In this document: positions 2,054-55,772 of the stretch, in pieces
Layout: every line of letters starts with the position of its first letter
Numbering within the stretch: position 1 is the stretch's first letter
From: Candidatus Nomurabacteria bacterium
GTDB taxonomy: Bacteria; Patescibacteriota; Minisyncoccia; Phycocordibacterales; UBA9973
Direction of reading: 5' to 3'
NCBI GenBank assembly: GCA_037139835.1
Contig: JBAXFQ010000002.1
Location: 10,659-74,658, forward strand
DNA: 64,000 nt
The notes under the pieces: model-generated
Database searches by the model: none
Seen by the model: only the letters and a program-made list of their open reading frames with translations
Told to the model about the DNA's origin: nothing
Made by a program: the position numbers and the translations under genes

Positions 2054-3121
2054 ATGAAAAAAGAAATTGAAATAAAAAGTAAATCTTCAAATAGTAATTT
2101 ACATAAGGCAAATAAGGATAAAAAGGATGAGTTTTACACTCAGCTTATTGATATTGAAAAGGAGCTCAAAAACTATAAAGAACAATTTCGTAATAAAGTA
2201 GTATATTGCAATTGTGATGATCCTTTTGAGAGCAATTTCTTTAAATACTTTGCAAATAATTTTAATGCTCTTGGTTTAAAAAGACTTATTGCTACAAGTT
2301 ATAAGCCTTCACCTATTGCTAATACCCAACTAGAACTATTTGGAGATGATAAAACTTTAAAACCAATAAAAGGACGTCCTAAAACAAATGCTAATAAATT
2401 AATTATAAATGAAGTCAAAGATCTTGATGGTGACGGTGCGTTTGATTTGCGTGATGTTGCTGAACAACTTAAGATAAATAAAAATAATGAATGGTCACCA
2501 ATGGAAGGAGATGGAGATTTTAGAAGTGAAGAAAGTATAGAACTGTTAAAACAAGCAGATATTATAGTAACTAACCCTCCTTTTTCATTATTTAGAGAAT
2601 ATATCACACAACTTACAGAATATAATAAAAAATTTTTGATTATTGGAAATACAAATGCTCTAACTTATAAAGAAATTTTTAAATTAGTTAAAGATGACAA
2701 CCTTCGAACTGGTTATACAAATTTTAATGTCGGGATGTTTTTTGAAGTTCCTGATGATTGGCAAAAGTATCATCACATAGATGAGCACGGGAAAAAAATT
2801 GCTCGGGTTTCTACTTCATGTTGGTTTACAAATCTTGAAGTAGAAAAACATAAACAAGATATTATTCTTTATAAAAAATATGATCAAAATATTTATCTTA
2901 AGTATGATAATTATAATGGTATAGAAGTTCCAAAAGTTCAGGAGATACCAATGGATTATAAAGGTATTATGGGAGTACCAATTACTTTTGTTGACAAGTA
3001 TAACCCAGATCAATTTGAGATAATAAAATTTAGAAAAGGAGATGATGAAAAAGATTTATCTATAAATGGAGGGTATCCATATTTTAGAATTTTAATTAAA
3101 AATAAAAAACCACAAAAATAA
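2054..3121 (+). CDS. N6-adenine DNA methyltransferase, EcoRI-methylase family
   Basis: N-terminus LHKANKDKKDEFYTQLIDIEKEL...VVYCNCDDPFESNFFKYFA closely resembles the M.EcoRI N-terminus as I recall it; catalytic NPPF motif (IIVTNPPFSLF); extended -10 TGgTATAAT at ~1994-2002. Confidence 0.8.
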   Translation: MKKEIEIKSKSSNSNLHKANKDKKDEFYTQLIDIEKELKNYKEQFRNKVVYCNCDDPFESNFFKYFANNFNALGLKRLIATSYKPSPIANTQLELFGDDKTLKPIKGRPKTNANKLIINEVKDLDGDGAFDLRDVAEQLKINKNNEWSPMEGDGDFRSEESIELLKQADIIVTNPPFSLFREYITQLTEYNKKFLIIGNTNALTYKEIFKLVKDDNLRTGYTNFNVGMFFEVPDDWQKYHHIDEHGKKIARVSTSCWFTNLEVEKHKQDIILYKKYDQNIYLKYDNYNGIEVPKVQEIPMDYKGIMGVPITFVDKYNPDQFEIIKFRKGDDEKDLSINGGYPYFRILIKNKKPQK

Positions 3122-3122
3122 T

Positions 3123-4226
3123 ATGAAAATAGATTTAAATAAAATAAAAATTGTTGATGTTGTAAAAGATTATAAAGATAGTGCTGAAGAAGGAATATCT
3201 GCTTTTGGTGGTAAGTTAGATATTCGTCCTAAATATCAAAGAGAGTTTGTATATAGTGGAAAGCAAAGAGATGAAGTAATAAAAACTATTAAAAATGGTT
3301 TTCCTCTAAATGTTATGTATTGGGTTAAGAAAGAAGACGGTAATTTCGAAGTACTTGATGGGCAGCAAAGAACCATAAGTATTGCTCAATATGTCAATGG
3401 AGATTTCTCTATCGAATTCAATGGTAGAACTGCAATGTTTCATAATTTAACCAAAGAAGAGCAAAATCAGATTATGAATTATGAACTTATGATTTATCAC
3501 TGCGAAGGAACTGAAAAGGAAAAACTTGATTGGTTCAAAATAATTAATATAGCAGGAGAAAAATTAACAGATCAGGAGCTTAGAAATGCTGTTTATACTG
3601 GACCATGGCTTTCTGATGCAAAATTAAAGTTTAGTAAAACAAATTGTGCTGCATATTTACTATCAAATGATGGTGGACAACTAATAACTGGTTCACCAAT
3701 AAGACAGGAATATTTGGAAACTGCACTATTGTGGATAAATAATGAGGAAATAGAAGATTATATGTCTAAACATCAGCATGATAAAAATGCAGACAAACTA
3801 TGGCAATATTTTCAAAATGTAATTCATTGGATACGAGAAGTTTTTCCTAATTATCGTAAAGAGATGTCGAGTGTTAGTTGGGGTGAGCTTTATAATGCAC
3901 TTAAGGATAAAAAACTTGATTCAAAAAAAATAGAAAAAGAAATTAAAGAATTAATGCAAGAAGAAGATGTAACAAAAAAATCTGGCATTTATCCGTATGT
4001 GCTTACTCGAAAAGAGAGATATCTTTCTATTCGAGCATTTACACCAAACATGAAAAGAGAAGCATACGAAAGACAAGGTGGCATTTGTGTTGCCTGTAAA
4101 AAAGAATTTTCAATTGGAGATATGGAAGCTGATCATATAAAACCATGGCACGAAGGAGGTAGGACTATTGCCGAAAATTGTCAGATGCTTTGCAAAGAAG
4201 ATAATAGAACTAAATCTGGAAAATAG
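3123..4226 (+). CDS. ParB-like DUF262 domain + C-terminal HNH endonuclease (GmrSD-like two-domain nuclease)
   Basis: DUF262 signature DGQQRT (FEVLDGQQRTISIAQY); C-terminal His-Me/HNH motif CVACKKEF...ADHIKPWHEGG...NCQMLCKEDN; start 1 nt after the MTase stop (operon). Confidence 0.75.
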   Translation: MKIDLNKIKIVDVVKDYKDSAEEGISAFGGKLDIRPKYQREFVYSGKQRDEVIKTIKNGFPLNVMYWVKKEDGNFEVLDGQQRTISIAQYVNGDFSIEFNGRTAMFHNLTKEEQNQIMNYELMIYHCEGTEKEKLDWFKIINIAGEKLTDQELRNAVYTGPWLSDAKLKFSKTNCAAYLLSNDGGQLITGSPIRQEYLETALLWINNEEIEDYMSKHQHDKNADKLWQYFQNVIHWIREVFPNYRKEMSSVSWGELYNALKDKKLDSKKIEKEIKELMQEEDVTKKSGIYPYVLTRKERYLSIRAFTPNMKREAYERQGGICVACKKEFSIGDMEADHIKPWHEGGRTIAENCQMLCKEDNRTKSGK

Positions 4227-5866: not shown

Positions 5867-6619
5867 ATGTATAATAAACGAATGCATAGCAAAAAAATAA
5901 TTATAATTTTATACTGTATTTTTATTTTGTGTGGCGCCTTGTCTTTGGTTTATATTCCAGATGCATCAAAATATTCTTATGGCTCAATTTTTGCATTGTT
6001 CATAATATCTCTACCTTTGTTTTATACACTTTATTTTAGATTTGGAATAAATACATTCATTAAATTAATTTTTTCTCTATCTTTATTTGCATTGCTCATA
6101 GAATATGTAGGGCTTGTCACAGGTTGGCCGTATGGAGAATTCTTATATACTGGGAATCTCGGTTATAAATTGTTTGGAATACTGCCATGGACTGTCGGAC
6201 TTTCCTGGACACCGCTTGTCGTCGGGTCTGTTGCTATGGTCTATCCTGTCACACAAAGAAAAGTATTACGAATCATATTGCCTGTAATAGTGTTGGTTGT
6301 TTTTGATCTGCTTCTTGATCCAGTAGCTGTTAATTTGGGTATGTGGTCATATTTACATGGTGGGGCATATTACAGCGTGCCTATTCAAAACTTTTTTGGT
6401 TGGATATTTTCTGGTTTGATTGGATCATTAATATGTTTTTATATTTTAAATAAATCTGATAATAAAATTTTTAATTTAGGATATAGTCTTCTTATTAATA
6501 TTATTTTTTGGTCTATCGTAGCTTGGGGTTTAGGATTGTATATACCTTTAATTTTCGGAATTTTTCTTATTATGTGTTTTACTGTGATATACTTTAAAAA
6601 TAATGAAAGATTTTCTTAA
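5867..6619 (+). CDS. polytopic membrane protein, carotenoid-cluster associated (candidate lycopene-cyclase-domain / carotenoid hydratase-like protein)
   Basis: About 7 hydrophobic segments; 3' end overlaps the start of the UbiA-family gene (translational coupling); function inferred from context only. Alternative start ATG 5882 (the 5867 ATG sits inside a TGTATAAT-like -10). Confidence 0.35.
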   Translation: MYNKRMHSKKIIIILYCIFILCGALSLVYIPDASKYSYGSIFALFIISLPLFYTLYFRFGINTFIKLIFSLSLFALLIEYVGLVTGWPYGEFLYTGNLGYKLFGILPWTVGLSWTPLVVGSVAMVYPVTQRKVLRIILPVIVLVVFDLLLDPVAVNLGMWSYLHGGAYYSVPIQNFFGWIFSGLIGSLICFYILNKSDNKIFNLGYSLLINIIFWSIVAWGLGLYIPLIFGIFLIMCFTVIYFKNNERFS

Positions 6620-7433
6620 GATAAGTCGCCCAAGGTTTTGGGTTTATGTAGCGGGACCCTTTTGGCTTTGTGGAGCTATATTTTACCCGTTGGGTGTAAA
6701 TATTACCCCGATGCTCATTTTTTTACTTTACTTTACCTTTCCGGCGAATATTTTAATATATGGAATCAATGATTTATATGATCGTGCAACCGACACTCTC
6801 AATACTAAAAAGACTTCATATGAGCAGGTTTTAGATAAAAAGTATGATAAAAAATTGATCTGGATTATCATACTTACAAATATACCTTTTTTGATTTATG
6901 GTTTTTTTGTTTTGCCAACAGCGTCATTTATATGCCTATTATTATTTGTAGTTTTATCTTGGCAGTATTCTGCAACTCCATTAAGAGCCAAAGCTGTCCC
7001 ATTTTTAGATAGCTTTGTCAGTGGTCTTTTATATATAGTGCCAGCCGGTGTTTCTTGGGCCCTTATTACAAATTCTTATCCACCATTCTTGCCAATGTTG
7101 GCTGGCTTTTTATGGTCTTACTCTATGCATTTGTATTCTGCTGTGCCTGATATCAATGCAGATAAAATGGCAGGTATCCAAACGGGAGCGACACTCTTAG
7201 GTAAAAATACCACGCTTATTTTATGTGGTGTTTTATATGCAGTGTCTTCCTTGATAGCTTATTTTTATATTGGGTTTTTTGCAATTATTGCTGGGTTGGG
7301 ATATTTGTATTTAATATTTATTTCCATCAAAAAAAGTAAACCAGAAGAAGTTCTCGTTATATATAAAATATTTCCATTTTTAAATACATTAGTTGGTGGA
7401 ATTCTTTTCGCGATTCTATTTTTTCTGCATTAA
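6603..7433 (+). CDS. UbiA-family aromatic/isoprenoid prenyltransferase (candidate lycopene elongase-like)
   Basis: UbiA superfamily Asp-rich motif NDLYDRATD and second motif DINAD; polytopic membrane protein; adjacent to crtI/crtB/polyprenyl synthase. Confidence 0.6.
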   Translation: MKDFLKISRPRFWVYVAGPFWLCGAIFYPLGVNITPMLIFLLYFTFPANILIYGINDLYDRATDTLNTKKTSYEQVLDKKYDKKLIWIIILTNIPFLIYGFFVLPTASFICLLLFVVLSWQYSATPLRAKAVPFLDSFVSGLLYIVPAGVSWALITNSYPPFLPMLAGFLWSYSMHLYSAVPDINADKMAGIQTGATLLGKNTTLILCGVLYAVSSLIAYFYIGFFAIIAGLGYLYLIFISIKKSKPEEVLVIYKIFPFLNTLVGGILFAILFFLH

Positions 7434-8945
7434 TTATAGACTCTTTAGAGGATGAACATCTTCATTTTTTGTAATACGTTTATAGACTAATTCTGCTGAG
7501 ATTATGCATATAGGCATACCTATACCTGGGTTTGTACCTGCTCCGACATAAAATAAATTTTTTATTGTTTTATGAATATTGTTTGGTCTAAATAGTGCAG
7601 TTTGATTTATCGTATGAGCAAGACCTAGGGCTGTGCCTTTATAAGCATTGTAGTCTATTTCAAAATTTTTAATAGAATAAGTCTTTTTAAAAATTATTCT
7701 ATCTCTAATATTATTTACACCTGCATAATTTTCAATTTCTGATAATACTTTTTCTGTGTATTCCTTTTCGAAATTATCATCATATGTAAGGCCTGGGGCT
7801 ATAGGTACTAAGACGAACAAATTTTCACAGTCAGCAGGCGCAATATTCTTATCGCTTTTTGATGGAGCACTTATATAAATAGATGGATCATCGGGCCATT
7901 TAGGATTATGAAATATCTGATCAAAGCCTTTACTCCAGTCTTTTGAAAAAATTAAATTATGATGTTCTAAGCTAGGTATTTTATCTTTTATACCTAGATA
8001 AAGTATAAATGCACTAGGGGCAAGCATTCGACTATCCCAATATTTTTCGCTGTGCTCTTGGTATGGTGCTTTTAATAAATGTTGATCAGTGTATGTAATA
8101 TCTGCATTTGAAATAACAATATCAGCGAAAATTTTTTCATCATTGTTTGTCAATCTTATGCCTTTGGCGATGTTATCTTCTACGATAATCTCACTTACTG
8201 GCGAATTTTTCATTATTTTTACGCCATTTTTAATTGCAATTTTTTCCATTGCCTCTGGTAGTTTCCAGACACCTCCATCGGGGTACCATACTCCTAGTCC
8301 AAAATCTACATAATTCATCATGCTATATATACCAGGGCAGTCGCCAGGAGCAGTCCCTAGTAACACCATTTGATATTGCAAGACTTTTTGCAATATCTCA
8401 CTTTTGAAGCGAGACTCGATTATTTGCTTTTGCTTTTTTAGAAGTGGTAATTTCCATCCAACTTTAGCGACACTCCAAGTTAGAAAATCAAAAATAGAAT
8501 TATAATTTTTAAACATGAATTCATTATATGCAATACTGTATTGTAATTTTAATTTATCTAAAAATTTTACCAATACCTGTCCGCTACCTGGTTCTATTTT
8601 TTCAAATGTTTCTTTATTTTTATCTATATCACCAAAAAAATCATAATGTGATTTGTCACTTTTTAGGAAAACACGGTATGAAGGGGACAGCTTTTTTAAA
8701 GTATAATAATCACTGATTTTTTCACCCATAAGTTCAAAGAAATGTTCGAATACTTCAGGCATCATATACCAGCTTGGGCCCATGTCGAAGATAAAACCAT
8801 TTTGTTCAAATACTCTGGCCCGACCACCGACTGATTCATTCTTTTCAACAATCGTTACATCGTAGCCCTTTTTTGCAAGCATACAAGCCGAGGCCAAGCC
8901 TCCGATACCCGCACCAATAATGATTATAGATTCTTTTTTATTCAT
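7434..8945 (-). CDS. crtI: phytoene desaturase family FAD-dependent oxidoreductase (CrtI/CrtN-like)
   Basis: N-terminal FAD fold IIIGAGIGGLASACMLAKKGYDVTIVEKNESVGGRA; ~500 aa, typical of the CrtI family. Confidence 0.8.
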   Translation of the reverse strand: MNKKESIIIIGAGIGGLASACMLAKKGYDVTIVEKNESVGGRARVFEQNGFIFDMGPSWYMMPEVFEHFFELMGEKISDYYTLKKLSPSYRVFLKSDKSHYDFFGDIDKNKETFEKIEPGSGQVLVKFLDKLKLQYSIAYNEFMFKNYNSIFDFLTWSVAKVGWKLPLLKKQKQIIESRFKSEILQKVLQYQMVLLGTAPGDCPGIYSMMNYVDFGLGVWYPDGGVWKLPEAMEKIAIKNGVKIMKNSPVSEIIVEDNIAKGIRLTNNDEKIFADIVISNADITYTDQHLLKAPYQEHSEKYWDSRMLAPSAFILYLGIKDKIPSLEHHNLIFSKDWSKGFDQIFHNPKWPDDPSIYISAPSKSDKNIAPADCENLFVLVPIAPGLTYDDNFEKEYTEKVLSEIENYAGVNNIRDRIIFKKTYSIKNFEIDYNAYKGTALGLAHTINQTALFRPNNIHKTIKNLFYVGAGTNPGIGMPICIISAELVYKRITKNEDVHPLKSL

Positions 8946-8949
8946 AAGA

Positions 8950-9792
8950 TTAAAAATATTTAATTATAATATAGATCTTTCTAAGTATTGAAACTCGCAC
9001 TCTTTCCTTGAATATTCTTTCGGGCTTCTTCTTTATTTTTTCCATTATTTCTTTATACAAATAAAGGGCTATACGTACCGCCCGCCTCCCTGATTTATTT
9101 AACATTGGTATACCTTTTAGTGCTTCATTGTATAAAATTTCGTTTCTTTCAATTTCATACAGTACTAGTTTTTTCATTTGTTCGCTCATTACTTCATTAT
9201 GAAAATCAGCTTCTGTCATGTTGTATCTTTTTATATCATCTTGAGGTATGTATATGCGCCCACGAGCTAGGTCTTCCTTTATGTCACGTAAAAAGTTTGT
9301 AAGCTGAAATGCTTCCGCTAATGCTTTTGCATAGATTAAAGCCCCATCATTAAAGCCGATTATACAGGACATCATATAACCCACAACAGTAGCTGAACCG
9401 TACATGTATTTCTCAAGTTCACTGTAATTTGCATAACGATTTTTATTCGTATCTTGAAGCATTGAGTCTAGAAATATATCACTGTACTCAAAAGGTATCT
9501 TGCAGTCATTCCAGAGTACTGCATTGGCTCTAAGTACTGGGTTCACATCAGTTGATCCATTATATGCCTTTTCCCATTCATTCTTCCACGCTAAAATTTT
9601 TTGTCTTGCTATATTTGAATCTTTCTCTTCGGTATCAACTATTTCATCAGGATAGCGCACAAATGCATATAATACCCAAGTCCGTTCTCTCAAATTTTTT
9701 GGGAAAAAATATGTAGAAATAAAATACGATGTACCATATGAACGAGTCATATTTTTGCAAATTTGTATATCATTTGATTGGATTTTTTCCAT
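8950..9792 (-). CDS. crtB: phytoene/squalene (dehydrosqualene) synthase family
   Basis: YAFVRYPDEIVD (first Asp-rich motif) and DLARGRIYIP (second motif) of trans-isoprenyl diphosphate synthase head-to-head enzymes. Confidence 0.8.
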   Translation of the reverse strand: MEKIQSNDIQICKNMTRSYGTSYFISTYFFPKNLRERTWVLYAFVRYPDEIVDTEEKDSNIARQKILAWKNEWEKAYNGSTDVNPVLRANAVLWNDCKIPFEYSDIFLDSMLQDTNKNRYANYSELEKYMYGSATVVGYMMSCIIGFNDGALIYAKALAEAFQLTNFLRDIKEDLARGRIYIPQDDIKRYNMTEADFHNEVMSEQMKKLVLYEIERNEILYNEALKGIPMLNKSGRRAVRIALYLYKEIMEKIKKKPERIFKERVRVSILRKIYIIIKYF

Positions 9793-10833
9793 TTAGTATT
9801 TTCTTTTTGTTACTATTGAAAGTAAGTTTATAATTTTTTCTAAGTATTCCTTTTTTAAATTAGATTTTGAGATAGCGTCCAGAGCAATACTTTCTTTCTG
9901 TTTAATAAAATTTTCCGCAAAATTAAAAGCTCCAGTATGCTTTAGAAATAAATTTATTTCCTCTTGGTTATTTATGTTTTTGTTTCCAAACCATTTAGCC
10001 CAAGTCTCATTTTCTTCCATTGTTGCATTTTCATCAATGTATATACTTATCATAGTATGTACTCCGTTTTTCATATCACCCAAGGGGTTCTTTTTAAGTG
10101 TCACTACATCTTTTGTGAAATCAAAAATATCATCTTGCATTTGAAATAGTAAGCCTACAGAATCACCGAAATCCGTAATCCATGAAAAATCTTTAATTTC
10201 ACCTTTGGCTAGTATCGCTCCCAACATTAAAGGGTGGGTGAAAGTATACCTAGCAGTTTTTAAGAGCATCTTATTCTCGGCATTAATCATAGTTACTGAT
10301 TTATCAATAGGATCATATACATCAATCATTTGGCCAATTATTACCTCTTCTGTAAGTAAATGAATAATATTCCAAGATTCCTGCGTTTGATTGCATTTAC
10401 TGAATTCTTTGTATGCCCAAGAAAAAACAAGGTCACCTAATAGTATCGCTATCGACTGACTTATTTGTTTTGCTGTTTCTTTATTTGTTTTAGAATCTAG
10501 GTCCTGTTCTATGTATTTATGTACAGAGGTGGCTCCATGTCGTGTATCTGATGCATCCATGATATCGTCATGAATCAGTGCCATTAAGTGAATTAGCTCT
10601 ATACCTATTAAAGTATTTTTTATGTCATGCCAGTTTTTACCAGAATATATACTATATGTCAGCGCAGTATTGTATGGTCGTATTCTCTTGCCGTTCGAGC
10701 CAATTGTAAGTAAATATTTTAAATAATCTGTACTTGGGTGTAATTTAAGTCTAGAATTTGAATCTGATATTAGCATTTTTAGCTCATTTTCAAATATAAT
10801 ATCAAATTCTACTTTAAAATCATTTATATTCAT
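9793..10833 (-). CDS. polyprenyl diphosphate synthase (GGPP/FPP synthase type)
   Basis: FARM LIHDDIMDASDTRHG and SARM FQMQDDIFDF. Confidence 0.8.
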   Translation of the reverse strand: MNINDFKVEFDIIFENELKMLISDSNSRLKLHPSTDYLKYLLTIGSNGKRIRPYNTALTYSIYSGKNWHDIKNTLIGIELIHLMALIHDDIMDASDTRHGATSVHKYIEQDLDSKTNKETAKQISQSIAILLGDLVFSWAYKEFSKCNQTQESWNIIHLLTEEVIIGQMIDVYDPIDKSVTMINAENKMLLKTARYTFTHPLMLGAILAKGEIKDFSWITDFGDSVGLLFQMQDDIFDFTKDVVTLKKNPLGDMKNGVHTMISIYIDENATMEENETWAKWFGNKNINNQEEINLFLKHTGAFNFAENFIKQKESIALDAISKSNLKKEYLEKIINLLSIVTKRKY

Positions 10834-23120: not shown

Positions 23121-23499
23121 GGCCGAATTCAATAAGAAAAATAAGTATAATTTTTGGCACTCACCTTTGGTGTTGTTATTGCTTTTTTGTGTTTTAGTCT
23201 TATTTGCATATAATATGATTGGTCTATCTACAAAAGAAAGAGAGACAGCAAAGAAAAAGGATTTAATTTTATCAAATATTGAGACTCTTAGAACTAGGGA
23301 AAAAAGCCTCAATTCAGATATTGAGAAGCTGAAGACTGATGAAGGTGTTGAGGAAACAATTAGAGATAAATATCAGGTAGTAAGACCAGATGAGAAGATG
23401 GTTACTATTGTAGATGAAGAAAAAAATGAAGCACCAGCTGTCGAAGTGGAAAGTAAGCATGGTTTTTTTGAGTGGTTAAAGGATATGTTTAATAAATAA
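23121..23499 (+). CDS. septum formation initiator family protein (FtsB/DivIC-like)
   Basis: Single TM + coiled coil + C-terminal IRDKYQVVRPDEKMV resembling the FtsB/DivIC motif; start chosen at MAEFNKK (23121). Confidence 0.5.
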
Positions 23500-23503
23500 A
23501 AAA

Positions 23504-23574
23504 GCGGTCGTAGTTTAGTGGTAGAACTGGTGCTTCCCAAGCATCGGGTGCGGGTTCGATTCCCGCCGACCGCA
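23504..23574 (+). tRNA. tRNA-Gly (anticodon CCC), 71 nt, CCA not encoded
   Basis: Cloverleaf: acceptor GCGGTCG/CGACCGC, anticodon arm GGTGC-TTCCCAA-GCATC, T-arm GCGGG-TTCGATT-CCCGC, 4-nt variable loop. Confidence 0.85.
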
Positions 23575-23740
23575 CATACAAAAATATCTTATATAAGATA
23601 TTTTTGTATGTGCGGGAGAGCAAGAGAACTGCTTCTCTTGCGTGCGGAAATCGAAAGACTTTTCTGTAATTTGTTTACAAATTCAGAAAAGTACCTGGCT
23701 ATGTAATAGCCGATAAGCGTACTCGCGGTCCCGACCACAC
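23570..23740 (+). repeat. tRNA-Gly-associated downstream module: perfect 46-bp palindrome (23570-23615) overlapping the last 5 nt of the tRNA, GC hairpin, antisense T-arm copy, long hairpin, GTAA-loop hairpin, conserved box CGATAAGCGTACTCGCGGTC, acceptor-3'-end copy
   Basis: Arms CCGCACATACAAAAATATCTTAT / ATAAGATATTTTTGTATGTGCGG; GCGGAAATCGAAAG is the inverse complement of the T-arm; CCGACCACACA mimics the tRNA 3' end CCGACCGCACA; homologous to the module after tRNA-Arg. Confidence 0.7.
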
Positions 23741-23856
23741 ATTGACTTAAATCTAGTTTTATTGACTTGTAAATATTTCATGTCAAGATGTTGCTTATTT
23801 TTTTAATATGATATACTAAAAATAGTTTTGAATTATTAATTAATTAAAAAATATTT

Positions 23857-24096
23857 ATGAGTAAAGTAACAGTTTATAGCACACCTACATGTCATTTTTG
23901 TCATATGGCAAAAGATTTTTTTAAAGAGAAAAATGTAGAGTTTGTTGATTATAATGTTTCAACTGATCTAGAAAAAAGAAAAGAAATGATGGATAAAAGT
24001 GGTCAGATGGGAGTACCAGTTATAGTTATAGATGATAAGATAATTGTTGGTTTTAATAAACCTCAAATTGTTGAAAAGCTAGGTATTAAAGAGTAG
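23857..24096 (+). CDS. glutaredoxin-like protein (NrdH/Grx family)
   Basis: CxxC active site YSTPTCHFCHMAK; 79 aa thioredoxin fold. Confidence 0.75.
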   Translation: MSKVTVYSTPTCHFCHMAKDFFKEKNVEFVDYNVSTDLEKRKEMMDKSGQMGVPVIVIDDKIIVGFNKPQIVEKLGIKE

Positions 24097-24123
24097 TTTT
24101 TTGTAAGATAATAGGTTATTATA

Positions 24124-24150
24124 AAAGCACCTTCATTGGTGCTTTTATTT
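24124..24150 (+). terminator. rho-independent terminator AAAAGCACC-ttcatt-GGTGCTTTTATTTT
   Basis: Perfect 7-bp GC-containing stem plus T-tract, directly before tRNA-Arg. Confidence 0.7.
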
Positions 24151-24151
24151 T

Positions 24152-24223
24152 GCCCTCGTAGTTCAATGGATAGAACAGTCCCGTCCTAAGGGATAGATGT
24201 CAGTTCGATTCTGGCCGGGGGCA
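24152..24223 (+). tRNA. tRNA-Arg (anticodon CCU), 72 nt, CCA not encoded
   Basis: Acceptor GCCCTCG/CGGGGGC, D-arm GTTC-AATGGATA-GAAC, anticodon arm GTCCC-GTCCTAA-GGGAT, T-arm GTCAG-TTCGATT-CTGGC. Confidence 0.8.
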
Positions 24224-24440
24224 CACACTCAAAAATATCTTTTTAAAGATATTTTTGAGTGTGTGCCCCGAACAAGCAAACTTCTTTGCTTGTGTGCCAG
24301 AATCGAAGACCTTGAGCTTGGATTTTAAAATTATTATTTTAAAATACGCGAAAGGTGTACTGAACCTGTAAGGTTCGATAAGCGTAACCGTGGTCGGCCG
24401 GGGGCACCAATTATATACTCGCGGTCTGGCCGGGGGCACC
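24218..24440 (+). repeat. tRNA-Arg-associated downstream module: near-perfect palindrome (arms ~24218-24243 / 24246-24269) overlapping the tRNA 3' end, GC hairpin, antisense T-arm copy (GCCAGAATCGAA), GTAA-loop hairpin, box CGATAAGCGTAACCGTGGTC, two acceptor-3'-end copies (GGCCGGGGGCACC at ~24396-24408 and 24428-24440)
   Basis: Same architecture and shared boxes (AAAAATATCTT...AAGATATTTTT centre; GAATCGAAGAC; CGATAAGCGTA; TACTCGCGGTC) as the tRNA-Gly module. Confidence 0.7.
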
Positions 24441-24477
24441 TTTTATTTTTCATTTAAATATGATAAAGTATACCCAA

Positions 24478-24782
24478 TGGATGAAGATATAAAAAAGCTT
24501 TTAAGTGATGATTTGGCTGTAAATAAGGCTAATAATGAGATGCTTAAGAAGCTTGTTCTTTACCAGAAATGGAATCAGATTTATAAAATTGTTTATTGGT
24601 CTATTATAATTCTTTCAGTCTTAGGTGCATTTTATTTTGTTCAACCTTATTTAGGAAGTATATTTGGTATATACAATGGAGGAGTAGGTGCGACAGATAT
24701 AAATAAAATTAGTAATGTAAATAAAAGCTTAGGAGAGAAGAGTCAAATACAGAAATTAATAGATGCATATCAAGGAAATTAA
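24478..24782 (+). CDS. hypothetical small membrane protein (101 aa)
   Basis: Start placed at ATG 24478 (MDEDIKK...), downstream of the tRNA-associated repeats that the track ORF overlaps; one TM segment. Confidence 0.4.
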
Positions 24783-24788
24783 ATGTCT

Positions 24789-24861
24789 GCCTAGATAGCT
24801 CAGTTGGTAGAGCGCTCCCCTGAAGAGGGATAGGTCCCCAGTTCAAATCTGGGTCTAGGCA
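24789..24861 (+). tRNA. tRNA-Phe (anticodon GAA), 73 nt, CCA not encoded
   Basis: Acceptor GCCTAGA/TCTAGGC and T-arm CCCAG-TTCAAAT-CTGGG perfect; anticodon loop CTGAAGA (U33-GAA-G37); one C-T mismatch at the top of the anticodon stem. Confidence 0.7.
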
Positions 24862-24871
24862 CAAAAAATAA

Positions 24872-24900
24872 AAAACCCGCAATTGCGGGTTTTTTATTTA
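24872..24900. terminator. bidirectional terminator AAAACCCGC-aatt-GCGGGTTTTTTATTT
   Basis: Perfect GC stem plus T-run; serves tRNA-Phe (+) and the Hsp20 gene (-). Confidence 0.75.
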
Positions 24901-24904
24901 TTTT

Positions 24905-25405
24905 TTATATTGATTTAACTTTCAATTTTGTCTCTCTATTTTTATCTATCTTTGGAAGTTTTATTATTAGAAGACCGTGTTTTTCTATAGCTTCAGCTTC
25001 TTCTAAGTTCACTTCTTCAGGTAATGATATTGATCTTGAGAATGTTCCCCAGTAAAGTTCTTGAACAAAATAATTTTCTTTATCTATTGACTGATTCTCT
25101 TCTCTTTTTCCTTTTATTGAAATGGAATCTCTTGTTATGTTTATTGATAGGTTGTCTGGGTGTACACCTGCTATCATCGTCTGAACAATAATCTCATTTT
25201 CTGTTTGGTACACATCTAGACTTAATTCTGCTTCTTGTTCTTCTTCCCATTTAGACTCAGATTCTCCATCTGATAATCCTTCTATATCTCTACCTTGTAA
25301 ATTTAACTTATTTACTGTATTGACAGCTATGTCTGTAGCTTCCTCCTCGTCTTCTAATCTAATACTTCCTGTAAGGCGCTCTAAAAACGATCTCTTTTTA
25401 ATCAT
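24905..25405 (-). CDS. Hsp20/alpha-crystallin family small heat-shock protein
   Basis: C-terminal alpha-crystallin domain ...WGTFSRSISLPEEVNLEEAEAIEKHGLLIIKLPK. Confidence 0.85.
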   Translation of the reverse strand: MIKKRSFLERLTGSIRLEDEEEATDIAVNTVNKLNLQGRDIEGLSDGESESKWEEEQEAELSLDVYQTENEIIVQTMIAGVHPDNLSINITRDSISIKGKREENQSIDKENYFVQELYWGTFSRSISLPEEVNLEEAEAIEKHGLLIIKLPKIDKNRETKLKVKSI

Positions 25406-55616: not shown

Positions 55617-55700
55617 ATAAACATTGTATCAGATTTCAAATCATAAATATATCCCGTGGGTTACAAAAAAGATACTTATAAAATAAGCTCAAAAAATTTG

Positions 55701-55772
55701 TGACCTTACGGGGAATCGGACCCCGATTACCGCCTTGAGAAGGCGATGTCCTAACCGTTAGACGATAAGGCC
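55701..55772 (-). tRNA. tRNA-Glu (anticodon CUC), CCA not encoded
   Basis: Reverse complement GGCCTTA-TC-GTCT-AACGGTTA-GGAC-A-TCGCC-TTCTCAA-GGCGG-TAAT-CGGGG-TCCGATT-CCCCG-TAAGGTC-A; closely parallels E. coli tRNA-Glu (GGCGGUAAC-AGGGG-UUCGAAU-CCCCU); T-loop has C at position 55. Confidence 0.75.

Follow-up and report, generated by a model that had tools for sequence, protein, structure and literature searches.

The tRNA-Gly(CCC) and tRNA-Arg(CCU) genes in a 64,000-nucleotide stretch of DNA from a Candidatus Nomurabacteria bacterium (contig JBAXFQ010000002.1, positions 10,659–74,658; the whole stretch is termed the window in what follows) are each followed by a homologous structured module of ∼170–220 bases. 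Judged from its sequence, this module is a fold-back, an inverted repeat of the last ∼20 nt (∼21 nt) of the gene that precedes it, combined with sense copies of the same segment and a scaffold of hairpins. Modules of this kind (∼110–220 bp, directly 3′ of tRNA or tmRNA genes and on the same strand) form a family that is uncatalogued. We tentatively read the module as a protein-less DNA-level insertion unit, mobilized in trans or formerly mobile, that is specific for tRNA and tmRNA 3′ ends. A first-pass annotation of the window had left the choice between a targeting element and a processing or regulatory RNA; the evidence now leans to the targeting element, with a functional RNA the doubtful second candidate.

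ARAGORN and Rfam find four tRNA genes in the window:

23504–23575, + strand: tRNA-Gly(CCC), Rfam tRNA score 68.6 bits; T-loop 23555–23561, T-stem 3′ strand 23562–23566, acceptor 3′ strand 23567–23573, A73 at 23574
24152–24224, + strand: tRNA-Arg(CCU); T-loop 24204–24210, T-stem 3′ strand 24211–24215, acceptor 3′ strand 24216–24222, A73 at 24223
24789–24862: tRNA-Phe
55700–55772, − strand: tRNA-Glu(CUC)

Read 5′ to 3′ on the tRNA strand, and with segments copied from the gene given by tRNA position, the module consists of the centre of a first palindromic hairpin (P1), antisense 73–66, hairpin P2, antisense 65–54 (for example CCGGGAATCGAA), hairpin P3, the junction GGTGTACTG, hairpin P4 with its TGTAA loop, sense 56–59 (CGAT), hairpin P5 (AA-GCG-TACT-CGC-GG) and sense 60–74, often with a second terminator after it. 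In the window these parts lie as follows:

23570–23615, + strand: Gly P1, a perfect palindrome of 23+23 nt (23570–23592/23593–23615), 100% complementary and recovered in the fold; arm 1 begins within the acceptor 3′ strand and arm 2 closes with antisense 70–74 (TGCGG, 23611–23615)
23620–23641, + strand: Gly P2 hairpin, 9-bp stem and CTGC loop, with compensatory differences from the Arg copy
23644–23655, + strand: Gly antisense arm B, GCGGAAATCGAA, complementary at 11 of 12 bases to 23555–23566 (positions 65–54)
23658–23692, + strand: Gly P3, variable hairpin, predicted by folding
23697–23711, + strand: Gly P4, 5-bp hairpin with TGTAA loop, from the fold and from covariation in the family
23711–23728, + strand: Gly 'box', made up of CGAT (sense T-loop 56–59), AA, P5 as GCG-TACT-CGC, and GG
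23729–23741, + strand: Gly sense copy of positions 60–74, degenerate (TCCCG-ACCACACA vs TCCCGCCGACCGCAC)
24218–24269, + strand: Arg P1, a perfect palindrome of 25+25 nt (24218–24242/24245–24269) with a 2-nt centre, 100% complementary; arm 2 closes with TGTGCCCC (24262–24269), which is antisense to the acceptor 3′ strand
24272–24293, + strand: Arg P2 hairpin, 9-bp stem and CTTC loop, from alignment and fold
24296–24307, + strand: Arg antisense arm B, GCCAGAATCGAA, antisense at 12 of 12 bases to 24204–24215
24310–24355, + strand: Arg P3, variable hairpin, predicted by folding
24362–24376, + strand: Arg P4, GAACC-TGTAA-GGTTC, its stem fully compensatory to that of Gly
24376–24393, + strand: Arg 'box', made up of CGAT, AA, P5 as GCG-TAAC-CGT (one G-T pair), and GG
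24394–24409, + strand: Arg sense copy 3a of the tRNA 3′ end, TC-GGCCGGGGGCACCA, a direct repeat lacking one base
24416–24440, + strand: Arg partial second unit, the P5 3′ half TACTCGCGG and sense copy 3b TCTGGCCGGGGGCACC (positions 60–75; direct repeat at 24425–24440), with the ancestral flank TTTTATTTTT directly 3′ of it

The two modules agree in 76% of alignment columns, and where their hairpins differ the changes are compensatory. The first-pass annotation had called them homologous and tied to tRNA 3′ ends, and this is borne out: the features it listed (palindromes reaching into the acceptor 3′ end, a GC hairpin, here P2, an inverse-complement copy of the T-arm, a hairpin with GTAA loop, here P4, and direct acceptor-end copies, two at Arg and one degenerate copy at Gly) are all present at their positions, and the family comprises more than 100 loci. 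The variable hairpin P3, between the antisense T-arm copy and P4, was absent from its list. Searched with a covariance model of 45 units, the window has the module at the Gly and Arg loci only, in agreement with the earlier observation that tRNA-Phe and tRNA-Glu lack it. Two further statements needed revision. The shared P1 centre, AAAAATATCTT-N4-AAGATATTTTT, does occur twice in the 64 kb, once in each module (0.01 expected by chance), but does not extend to the family, where relatives usually have a terminator-like A-run, hairpin and T-run at this place. The conserved box CGATAAGCGTA..CGYGGTC is likewise present in both modules, and CGATAAGCGTA is found exactly twice in 64 kb, but it is no independent motif: it consists of the sense T-loop copy 56–59, P5 and T60. 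We read it as a split T-loop copy because its tetramer changes with the T-loop type of the adjacent gene and because P5 covaries (GCG/CGC, GGC/GCC, GTG/CAC and ATG/CAT across the family). P4 pairs 79:91 to 82:88 also covary among the 45 sequences. Covariation between arms that were copied from one gene is trivial and was excluded from the structural evidence.

What ties each module to its own gene is the sequence of the arms. The sense copy matches the adjacent gene at 10.0 of 13 bases and other tRNAs, used as control, at 6.95; the antisense T-arm matches at 10.6 of 12 (control 8.6) and the antisense acceptor at 7.25 of 8 (control 5.4). The antisense heptamer follows the T-loop type, with AATCGAA in 54 of 59 cases, ATTCGAA in 4/4, ATTTGAA in 4/4 and ACTCGAA in 2/3. 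So does the sense tetramer, which is CGAT with TTCGATT, CGAA with TTCGAAT (tRNA-Ser of locus L095; such labels denote related loci) and CGAC with TTCGACT (tRNA-Gly of L003). The tRNA-Gly module is kept in the syntenic relatives L021, L023, L066 and L106, where the arms track changes in the T-stem and acceptor.

The predicted folds are far more stable than expected for shuffled sequence (z = −9.3 for tRNA-Gly with its module, −10.4 for tRNA-Arg). The models give two folds that exclude each other, one in which the antisense arms pair with the tRNA's own 3′ end and one in which the module is self-closed. For Arg, the fold with the tRNA comprises ∼37 bp, P2 branching off at the side, and is predicted for RNA and for DNA alike; in the predicted self-closure the antisense acceptor pairs with the last sense copy (3b), which ends A73-CC. 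As single-stranded DNA, 24200–24442 folds at −70.4 kcal/mol (z = −11.9), the 3′ 20 nt of the tRNA forming a duplex with the antisense arms, from which P2 projects. P2 interrupts the antisense arm at 65/66 and P5 the sense arm at 59/60, on opposite strands and 6 bp apart. The annotation had also expected the palindromes to compete with acceptor folding, and in minimum-free-energy structures of the read-through transcript the palindrome and antisense arms are indeed predicted to out-compete the acceptor and T-arm; by these models, T-arm and acceptor 3′ strand would be sequestered by the antisense arms wherever read-through occurs.

Three other accounts of the parts were tried and rejected. P4 and the 'box' might be the decayed 3′ two-thirds of a tRNA, and the lengths match, but the would-be T-stem 5′ strand is unpaired and the split T-loop covaries. 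The antisense arm might be a primer-binding site for mature tRNA, but it runs on as the complement of the gene's trailer and not of the CCA end. Loop–loop pairing of GUAC in the junction with GUAC in P5 shows no covariation when the P5 loop changes.

The annotation had suggested searching other loci and genomes for the box and palindrome, and in such searches the module recurs behind many tRNA and tmRNA genes. We scanned metagenome contigs with the pattern TGTAA-N(4,5)-CGATAAGCGTA-NN-CG, an exact 18-base motif that biases both conservation and isoacceptor frequencies. At least 120 metagenome loci carry the pattern, with 126 matches among those listed. Of these 126, 76 have a same-strand tRNA upstream, mostly 120–160 nt away, and ∼10 lie inside open reading frames (ORFs) and are attributed to chance; the isoacceptors found upstream among the matches listed are Glu, Arg, Gln, Gly, Lys, Trp, His, Pro and Leu. 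One match in a viral contig, beside an integrase gene and a tRNA fragment, was also set aside as chance, as P4 pairing and the surrounding motifs are missing there. A scan of genome contigs with an N5 spacer from TGTAA to CGATAAG, where the modules have N4, returned a single genome, Candidatus Taylorbacteria, with a copy behind tRNA-Glu on a contig of ∼51% G+C. The P1 of the Taylorbacteria copy includes G-U pairs; the palindrome need not be perfect. Because the same architecture is seen in more than 100 independent assemblies, misassembly of duplicated tRNA ends, which the annotation had named as a possible refutation, is excluded.

Some modules trail the tmRNA gene, ssrA (L012 3400–4060; L070 3849–4411; L097, with the tmRNA at 2381–2675 on the − strand; L108; L111), and here the arms correspond to T-arm and acceptor end of the tmRNA (GCGGGTTCGATTCCCGCCATCTCCAC). 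The covariance model finds several units per 5–14-kb contig. Modules that lack the exact box are also seen, behind tRNAs that include Ser, Val, Leu and Phe. Among the variant forms are a contiguous antisense arm without P2 and a 'type B' core, ..GAGYCGGGGTCGMGAG-hairpin-CTCGTGACC.., which has the same P5 and sense-copy ending. P3 falls into a few recurring subfamilies, and the same subfamily is found behind different tRNAs. In L062 (1–13607; 13.6 kb) all six tRNA genes (Ser, two Arg, Val, Leu and His) have a module, of type A, type B or the contiguous-antisense form, some in tandem. A right-hand domain of ∼45 nt and the order of the five hairpins are common to more than 20 isoacceptors and tmRNA, from the ∼51% G+C Taylorbacteria contig to the AT-rich window. 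The one named genome, the gene content and the impression given by metagenome contig names suggest that the hosts are bacteria of the candidate phyla radiation (CPR)/Patescibacteria type.

Rfam 15 finds only tRNA in 23300–25000 at E up to 10, apart from spurious miRNA-hairpin matches to the palindromes, with scores well short of gathering, and only tRNA and tmRNA in 10 related loci at the gathering threshold. Compared by eye, hammerhead, pistol, twister and HDV (hepatitis delta virus)-like ribozyme cores seem not to agree with the order of the conserved motifs. Literature searches by topic and by conserved sequence strings returned no description of the module, only group I introns of CPR tRNA genes.

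Several features of these loci are those of insertion. The annotation had likened the acceptor-end copies to attachment-site remnants, and they do resemble displaced or duplicated 3′ ends: identity between gene and downstream copy starts at T60, has a mode of 14–15 nt and ends at C74 in about one-third of loci, being cut to 5–12 nt elsewhere. At T-stem positions 61–65 the gene equals the downstream copy at 231 of 250 sites and the antisense copy at 217 of 250; the higher agreement with the downstream copy is as expected from target duplication. In the window, the sequence directly behind the last Arg copy (CACC-TTTTATTTTT..AAATATGATAAAGTAT) is the one that in the syntenic locus L021 follows the 3′ end of the old tRNA-Arg; it appears to be the ancestral flank. 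Units occur in tandem. In L003 and L062 there are complete ones, each having a terminator and antisense arms of its own; L076, L039, L047 and the window Arg locus (a P5 half and a second 3′ copy) have partial units, and L095 also has tandem units, full or partial. The recurrence of one P3 subfamily behind different tRNAs points the same way, as does the near-identical P1 centre of the two window modules, whose tRNAs differ. Occupancy is patchy among orthologous loci: the Arg(CCU) slot has a module in the window and L020 and none in L021 and L066; the Glu locus has one in L081 and L013 and none in the window; and the Phe locus has a variant module in L020 and none in the window. At the window tRNA-Glu(CUC), a P1-like palindrome GGTCACAAA..TTTGTAACC is retained (55620–55700, − strand), and the flank GGATATATTTATGATTTGAAATCTGAT is orthologous to that 3′ of the full modules in L081 and L013. 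Either the site is empty or a module has been deleted here.

Module-bearing tRNA loci often undergo 3′-end duplication and gene replacement. In L021 (4930–5180, − strand) and L066 (553–665, + strand) a complete new tRNA-Arg(CCU) lies within the D-loop of an older tRNA-Arg, with the old 5′ fragment upstream; the L021 insert is bounded by a 9-bp inverted repeat, TTACCCGCC/GGCGGGTAA, followed by the old 3′ part with a module-like P3 and P4. The tRNA-Phe of L020 (4560–4841, − strand) has an acceptor stem unlike that of the window and a 'type B' module behind it, ending in a remnant AAATCTAGTCCTAGGCACC that is similar to the 3′ end of the window and L021 tRNA-Phe; the sequences suggest that gene and module together may have replaced an older tRNA-Phe gene. 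Scaffold-free 3′-end duplications, or second tRNA copies of which decayed 3′ two-thirds remain, are seen in L021 (4400–4546, − strand), L078, L076 and L101, the duplications involving Phe in L021, Gly in L078 and Arg in L076.

Some matches come after the right end of an island of kb size that has integrated between tRNA and module. Such islands, between the tRNA and the terminator plus module, are seen in L074, L086, L113, L096, L056 and L083 (∼130–330 nt upstream of the box) and in L024 (900–2090). Six of them share a right-end motif, CAGGGTAATGAA..GGTTCTATC.CGAGA.CCCTCAC, with CGCACGAGAAGGGTCAAA upstream. Cargo recognized by eye includes a DUF4160-type ORF and a helicase-C-terminal-type ORF; the L024 island carries a 271-aa porin-like ORF and no integrase.

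The pattern of stem mismatches bears on whether the module acts as DNA or RNA. Its stems are ∼98% Watson–Crick (401 of 407 pairs for P2 across the family), and G-U and A-C mismatches are about equally frequent: 18 vs 19 in P1, 37 vs 34 in P3, and 0 vs 2 of 407 pairs in P2. This symmetry fits transitions in sequence that is kept perfect as DNA, unlike a wobble-tolerant RNA stem. The same counts were tried as an indicator of the functional strand and, being symmetric, assign neither. A T-run of at least four follows the first hairpin in 45 of 54 relatives, with an A-run before the hairpin as well in 38 of 54. The usual position of the module beyond such a terminator-like element also points to DNA, as does the antisense arm, which runs on into the complement of the trailer. 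In the window the P1 centre is A+T-only and a terminator scan calls none; a promoter scan of the window region finds no promoter-like site.

The modules themselves (110–220 bp) contain no ORF. The annotation had proposed looking for a cognate integrase or recombinase: no integrase was found near the modules, and a Pfam scan of 50 window ORFs gave no integrase, reverse transcriptase, recombinase, or HUH or Y1 transposase domain. Clustering of neighbouring genes (≥90 aa, and 60–140 aa) gave no enriched integrase, recombinase, reverse transcriptase, transposase or nuclease, the neighbours being housekeeping genes. GIY-YIG-like ORFs of 79–87 aa lie ∼0.1–1.5 kb from module-bearing tRNA or tmRNA genes at five loci (L012 3062–3326; L024 2142–2399; L097 814–1054; L112 2036–2276; L120 7393–7633), and YraN-like ORFs at six, numbers too few for enrichment.

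The insertion reading would work as follows. Module DNA would insert at the 3′ end of a gene and duplicate its last 15 nt (60 to C74); re-insertion beside either copy would produce tandem arrays; and an enzyme encoded elsewhere would propagate or maintain the module as DNA. In a single strand, the antisense and sense arms could rebuild a duplex replica of the target, from which P2 and P5 would protrude on opposite strands 6 bp apart. We take this stagger to be the geometry of a tyrosine-recombinase crossover region, and regard it as a lead, not a test. The arms may be re-written for each tRNA either by copying the target at insertion or by hairpin-templated (quasi-palindrome) correction against the functional gene. 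Mobility is suggested by the distribution of the modules; single-stranded action, the enzyme encoded elsewhere and the re-writing of arms are likewise steps that we infer.

A number of points weigh against this reading. Neither an enzyme, nor an excised form, nor a pair of empty and filled sites with exact boundaries was found among the loci. The tRNA-strand fold is more stable than that of the opposite strand in 79 of 90 modules, an asymmetry that may reflect loop bonuses. Conservation extends to unpaired motifs (GGTGTACTG, TGTAA and TACT) and to an asymmetric GA bulge in P3, and the orientation of the module relative to the tRNA is fixed. The presence of modules at all six tRNAs of L062 would fit a host function, as does the tRNA-Gly module that stays syntenic, its arms following the stems, across relatives whose flanking proteins are ∼55–60% identical by eye. 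Four target-derived segments alternating with scaffold are hard to obtain by a single insertion, and look more like a selected guide-plus-scaffold design. Finally, the loci were ascertained by an exact motif, which biases estimates of conservation.

Much of this would suit a functional cis-encoded structured RNA, made by terminator read-through or as a 3′ trailer, which we consider unlikely though the best placed of the alternatives. Such an RNA could be an acceptor/T-stem minihelix that mimics its own tRNA and serves RNase P, RNase Z, the CCA-adding enzyme, a synthetase or a tRNA-directed nuclease as substrate or decoy; or it could pair with the 3′ 20 nt of the tRNA to give a long RNase III duplex that destroys or insulates read-through transcripts. 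Besides the strand asymmetry, the fixed orientation, the L062 array and the synteny with co-varying arms, the fully compensatory changes in P2–P5, the conserved loops and junctions, the two mutually exclusive predicted folds and the CC or CCA that follows the sense copy in several loci (including the window Arg) speak for it. Minihelix features are mixed: the Arg module self-closes and about one-third of relatives have a full-length acceptor copy, while the T-loop equivalent is paired and split, leaving no loop. In the remaining two-thirds of loci the sense acceptor copy is truncated and the minihelix often cannot form. The module moreover usually lies beyond a terminator-like hairpin and T-run, and the scan of the window region gave no promoter-like site for it; its stems show no wobble excess; it is patchy among orthologous tRNAs; its antisense arms match the trailer rather than the mature CCA; and no Rfam family corresponds to it.

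The guide-plus-scaffold appearance can also be taken at face value: an element with re-writable segments for both strands of a 20-bp target (T-loop to acceptor end), served by an enzyme in trans, or else a per-tRNA antisense and mimic RNA, borne by as many as all the tRNA genes of a genome. Taken jointly we think these improbable. The former would amount to programmable insertion directed by base pairing in CPR bacteria, of another kind than CRISPR-associated transposons, IS110 bridge RNAs and group II introns.

A still less probable account takes the modules for passive scars, left where classical integrase islands entered or tRNA genes were replaced, with neither mobility nor function of their own; template switching at the terminator hairpin (quasi-palindrome extension) would later have given them their present shape. 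The loci are indeed recombination hot spots, with kb-sized islands (L024, L074, L086, L113, L096), new tRNA genes inside old ones (L021, L066, L101), scaffold-free 3′-end duplications (L021 Phe, L078 Gly, L076 Arg) and perfect palindromes. But scars would not share a ∼45-nt domain and the order of five hairpins behind more than 20 isoacceptors and tmRNA, and T-loop-specific covariation of the antisense and sense segments would be unexpected.

A T-loop intron is reported for the tmRNA gene of a clostridium. A self-splicing intron in degenerate or minimal form, or another ribozyme, lying in the T-loop would account for the insertion point at 59/60, for an internal segment that pairs just upstream of it like an internal guide sequence, and for the host group, whose tRNA genes are rich in group I introns (bioRxiv 10.1101/2025.07.03.662931; PMC13011429), yet it is highly improbable, as the upstream tRNA is complete with a normal score and needs no splicing, nothing matches group I (RF00028) or any ribozyme family at E up to 10, the putative splice-site pair is U-A (U59 or U60 with A in AATCGAA) rather than U-G, the base just ahead of the 3′ copy may be G, A or T, and the core is only ∼90 nt.

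CPR/Patescibacteria genomes are tiny and streamlined. Despite this, some contigs, such as L062, give every tRNA gene a structured module of ∼150–200 bp. If the module is mobile, it represents a new way to hit the tRNA/tmRNA 3′-end target, without a self-encoded integrase and with arms that copy each target on both strands; the re-writing of target specificity would be directly testable, and possibly of interest for programmable insertion. If it acts as RNA, it would be a tRNA-specific layer of antisense and mimicry on tRNA expression that databases do not list. The modules also mark tRNA loci prone to gene replacement, and their pseudo 3′ ends and long palindromes can mislead tRNA annotation, attachment-site calling and assembly in CPR genomes.

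The surroundings in the window are chromosomal and housekeeping in nature (MurJ, LepA, a DivIC/FtsB-like protein, a glutaredoxin-like ORF, Hsp20, ValRS and TsaD). At 2054–4223 an EcoRI-like adenine methyltransferase adjoins a GmrSD-N/HNH endonuclease, probably as a restriction or modification-dependent defence pair. At 5867–10830 lies a carotenoid-type cluster (carotenoid synthesis protein, UbiA prenyltransferase, flavin amine-oxidase/desaturase, phytoene/squalene synthase and polyprenyl synthase), unusual for an otherwise CPR-like genome.

Integrative elements that use the 3′ part of tRNA and tmRNA genes, with T-loop and 3′-end sublocations, have been catalogued by K. P. Williams. The module shares with them the 3′-part target, the intact gene, the downstream direct repeat of the gene's 3′ end and the arrays built by repeated insertion; its position at the 3′ ends of tRNA and tmRNA genes and the direct repeat are those that define such elements. 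It differs in its size (110–220 bp vs kilobases), in having no integrase in or beside it, in a repeat of only ∼15 nt, and in its antisense copy of the target and conserved hairpin scaffold.

The attP(+) site of CTX phage, used by XerCD, and the attC sites of integrons, used by IntI, are folded single-strand sites in which inverted segments rebuild a duplex recombination site. The Arg DNA fold, together with the splitting of the sense strand by P5, is predicted to do the same, with a rebuilt duplex target and extrahelical elements that mark the strands; tandem arrays and a protein acting in trans (in our case proposed) are further likenesses. Unlike those sites, the module shows no sign of Xer or IntI, its duplex copies each target rather than a fixed dif-like site or R-box, and it is known from sequence folds.

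REP, REPIN and BIME sequences and MITEs (miniature inverted-repeat transposable elements) are likewise small, non-coding, multi-copy palindromic intergenic units, often just after terminators; their units alternate in orientation, have conserved linkers and are mobilized in trans. In the module, by contrast with REP and REPIN, the arms differ per locus and follow the adjacent tRNA instead of a genome-wide consensus, the location is strictly at tRNA/tmRNA 3′ ends, no terminal inverted repeats were seen, and no RAYT-type HUH/Y1 domain was found among the window ORFs scanned. Of MITE features it has the multiple copies; no terminal inverted repeats are evident, and the duplication has a mode of 14–15 nt with two-thirds of copies shorter.

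With the left-end guide of IS200/IS605 and the bridge RNA of IS110 the module shares internal segments complementary to the flanking target, with both strands represented. Unlike them it has no adjacent gene for TnpA, TnpB or a DEDD recombinase and no Rfam or sequence similarity, and its guides are much longer, the same 20 nt being present on both strands.

Group I introns occur in tRNA and tmRNA genes of Patescibacteria and Bacillota, the Patescibacteria tRNA work concerning anticodon-loop insertions (bioRxiv 10.1101/2025.07.03.662931). Host phylum, target class and the pairing of an internal sequence with an upstream segment of the gene are common to both, but behind the module the gene is uninterrupted, no catalytic core is detected and conserved splice-site features are missing. 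Overall, the module would appear to function most like small non-autonomous elements directed at the classic tRNA/tmRNA 3′-end target.

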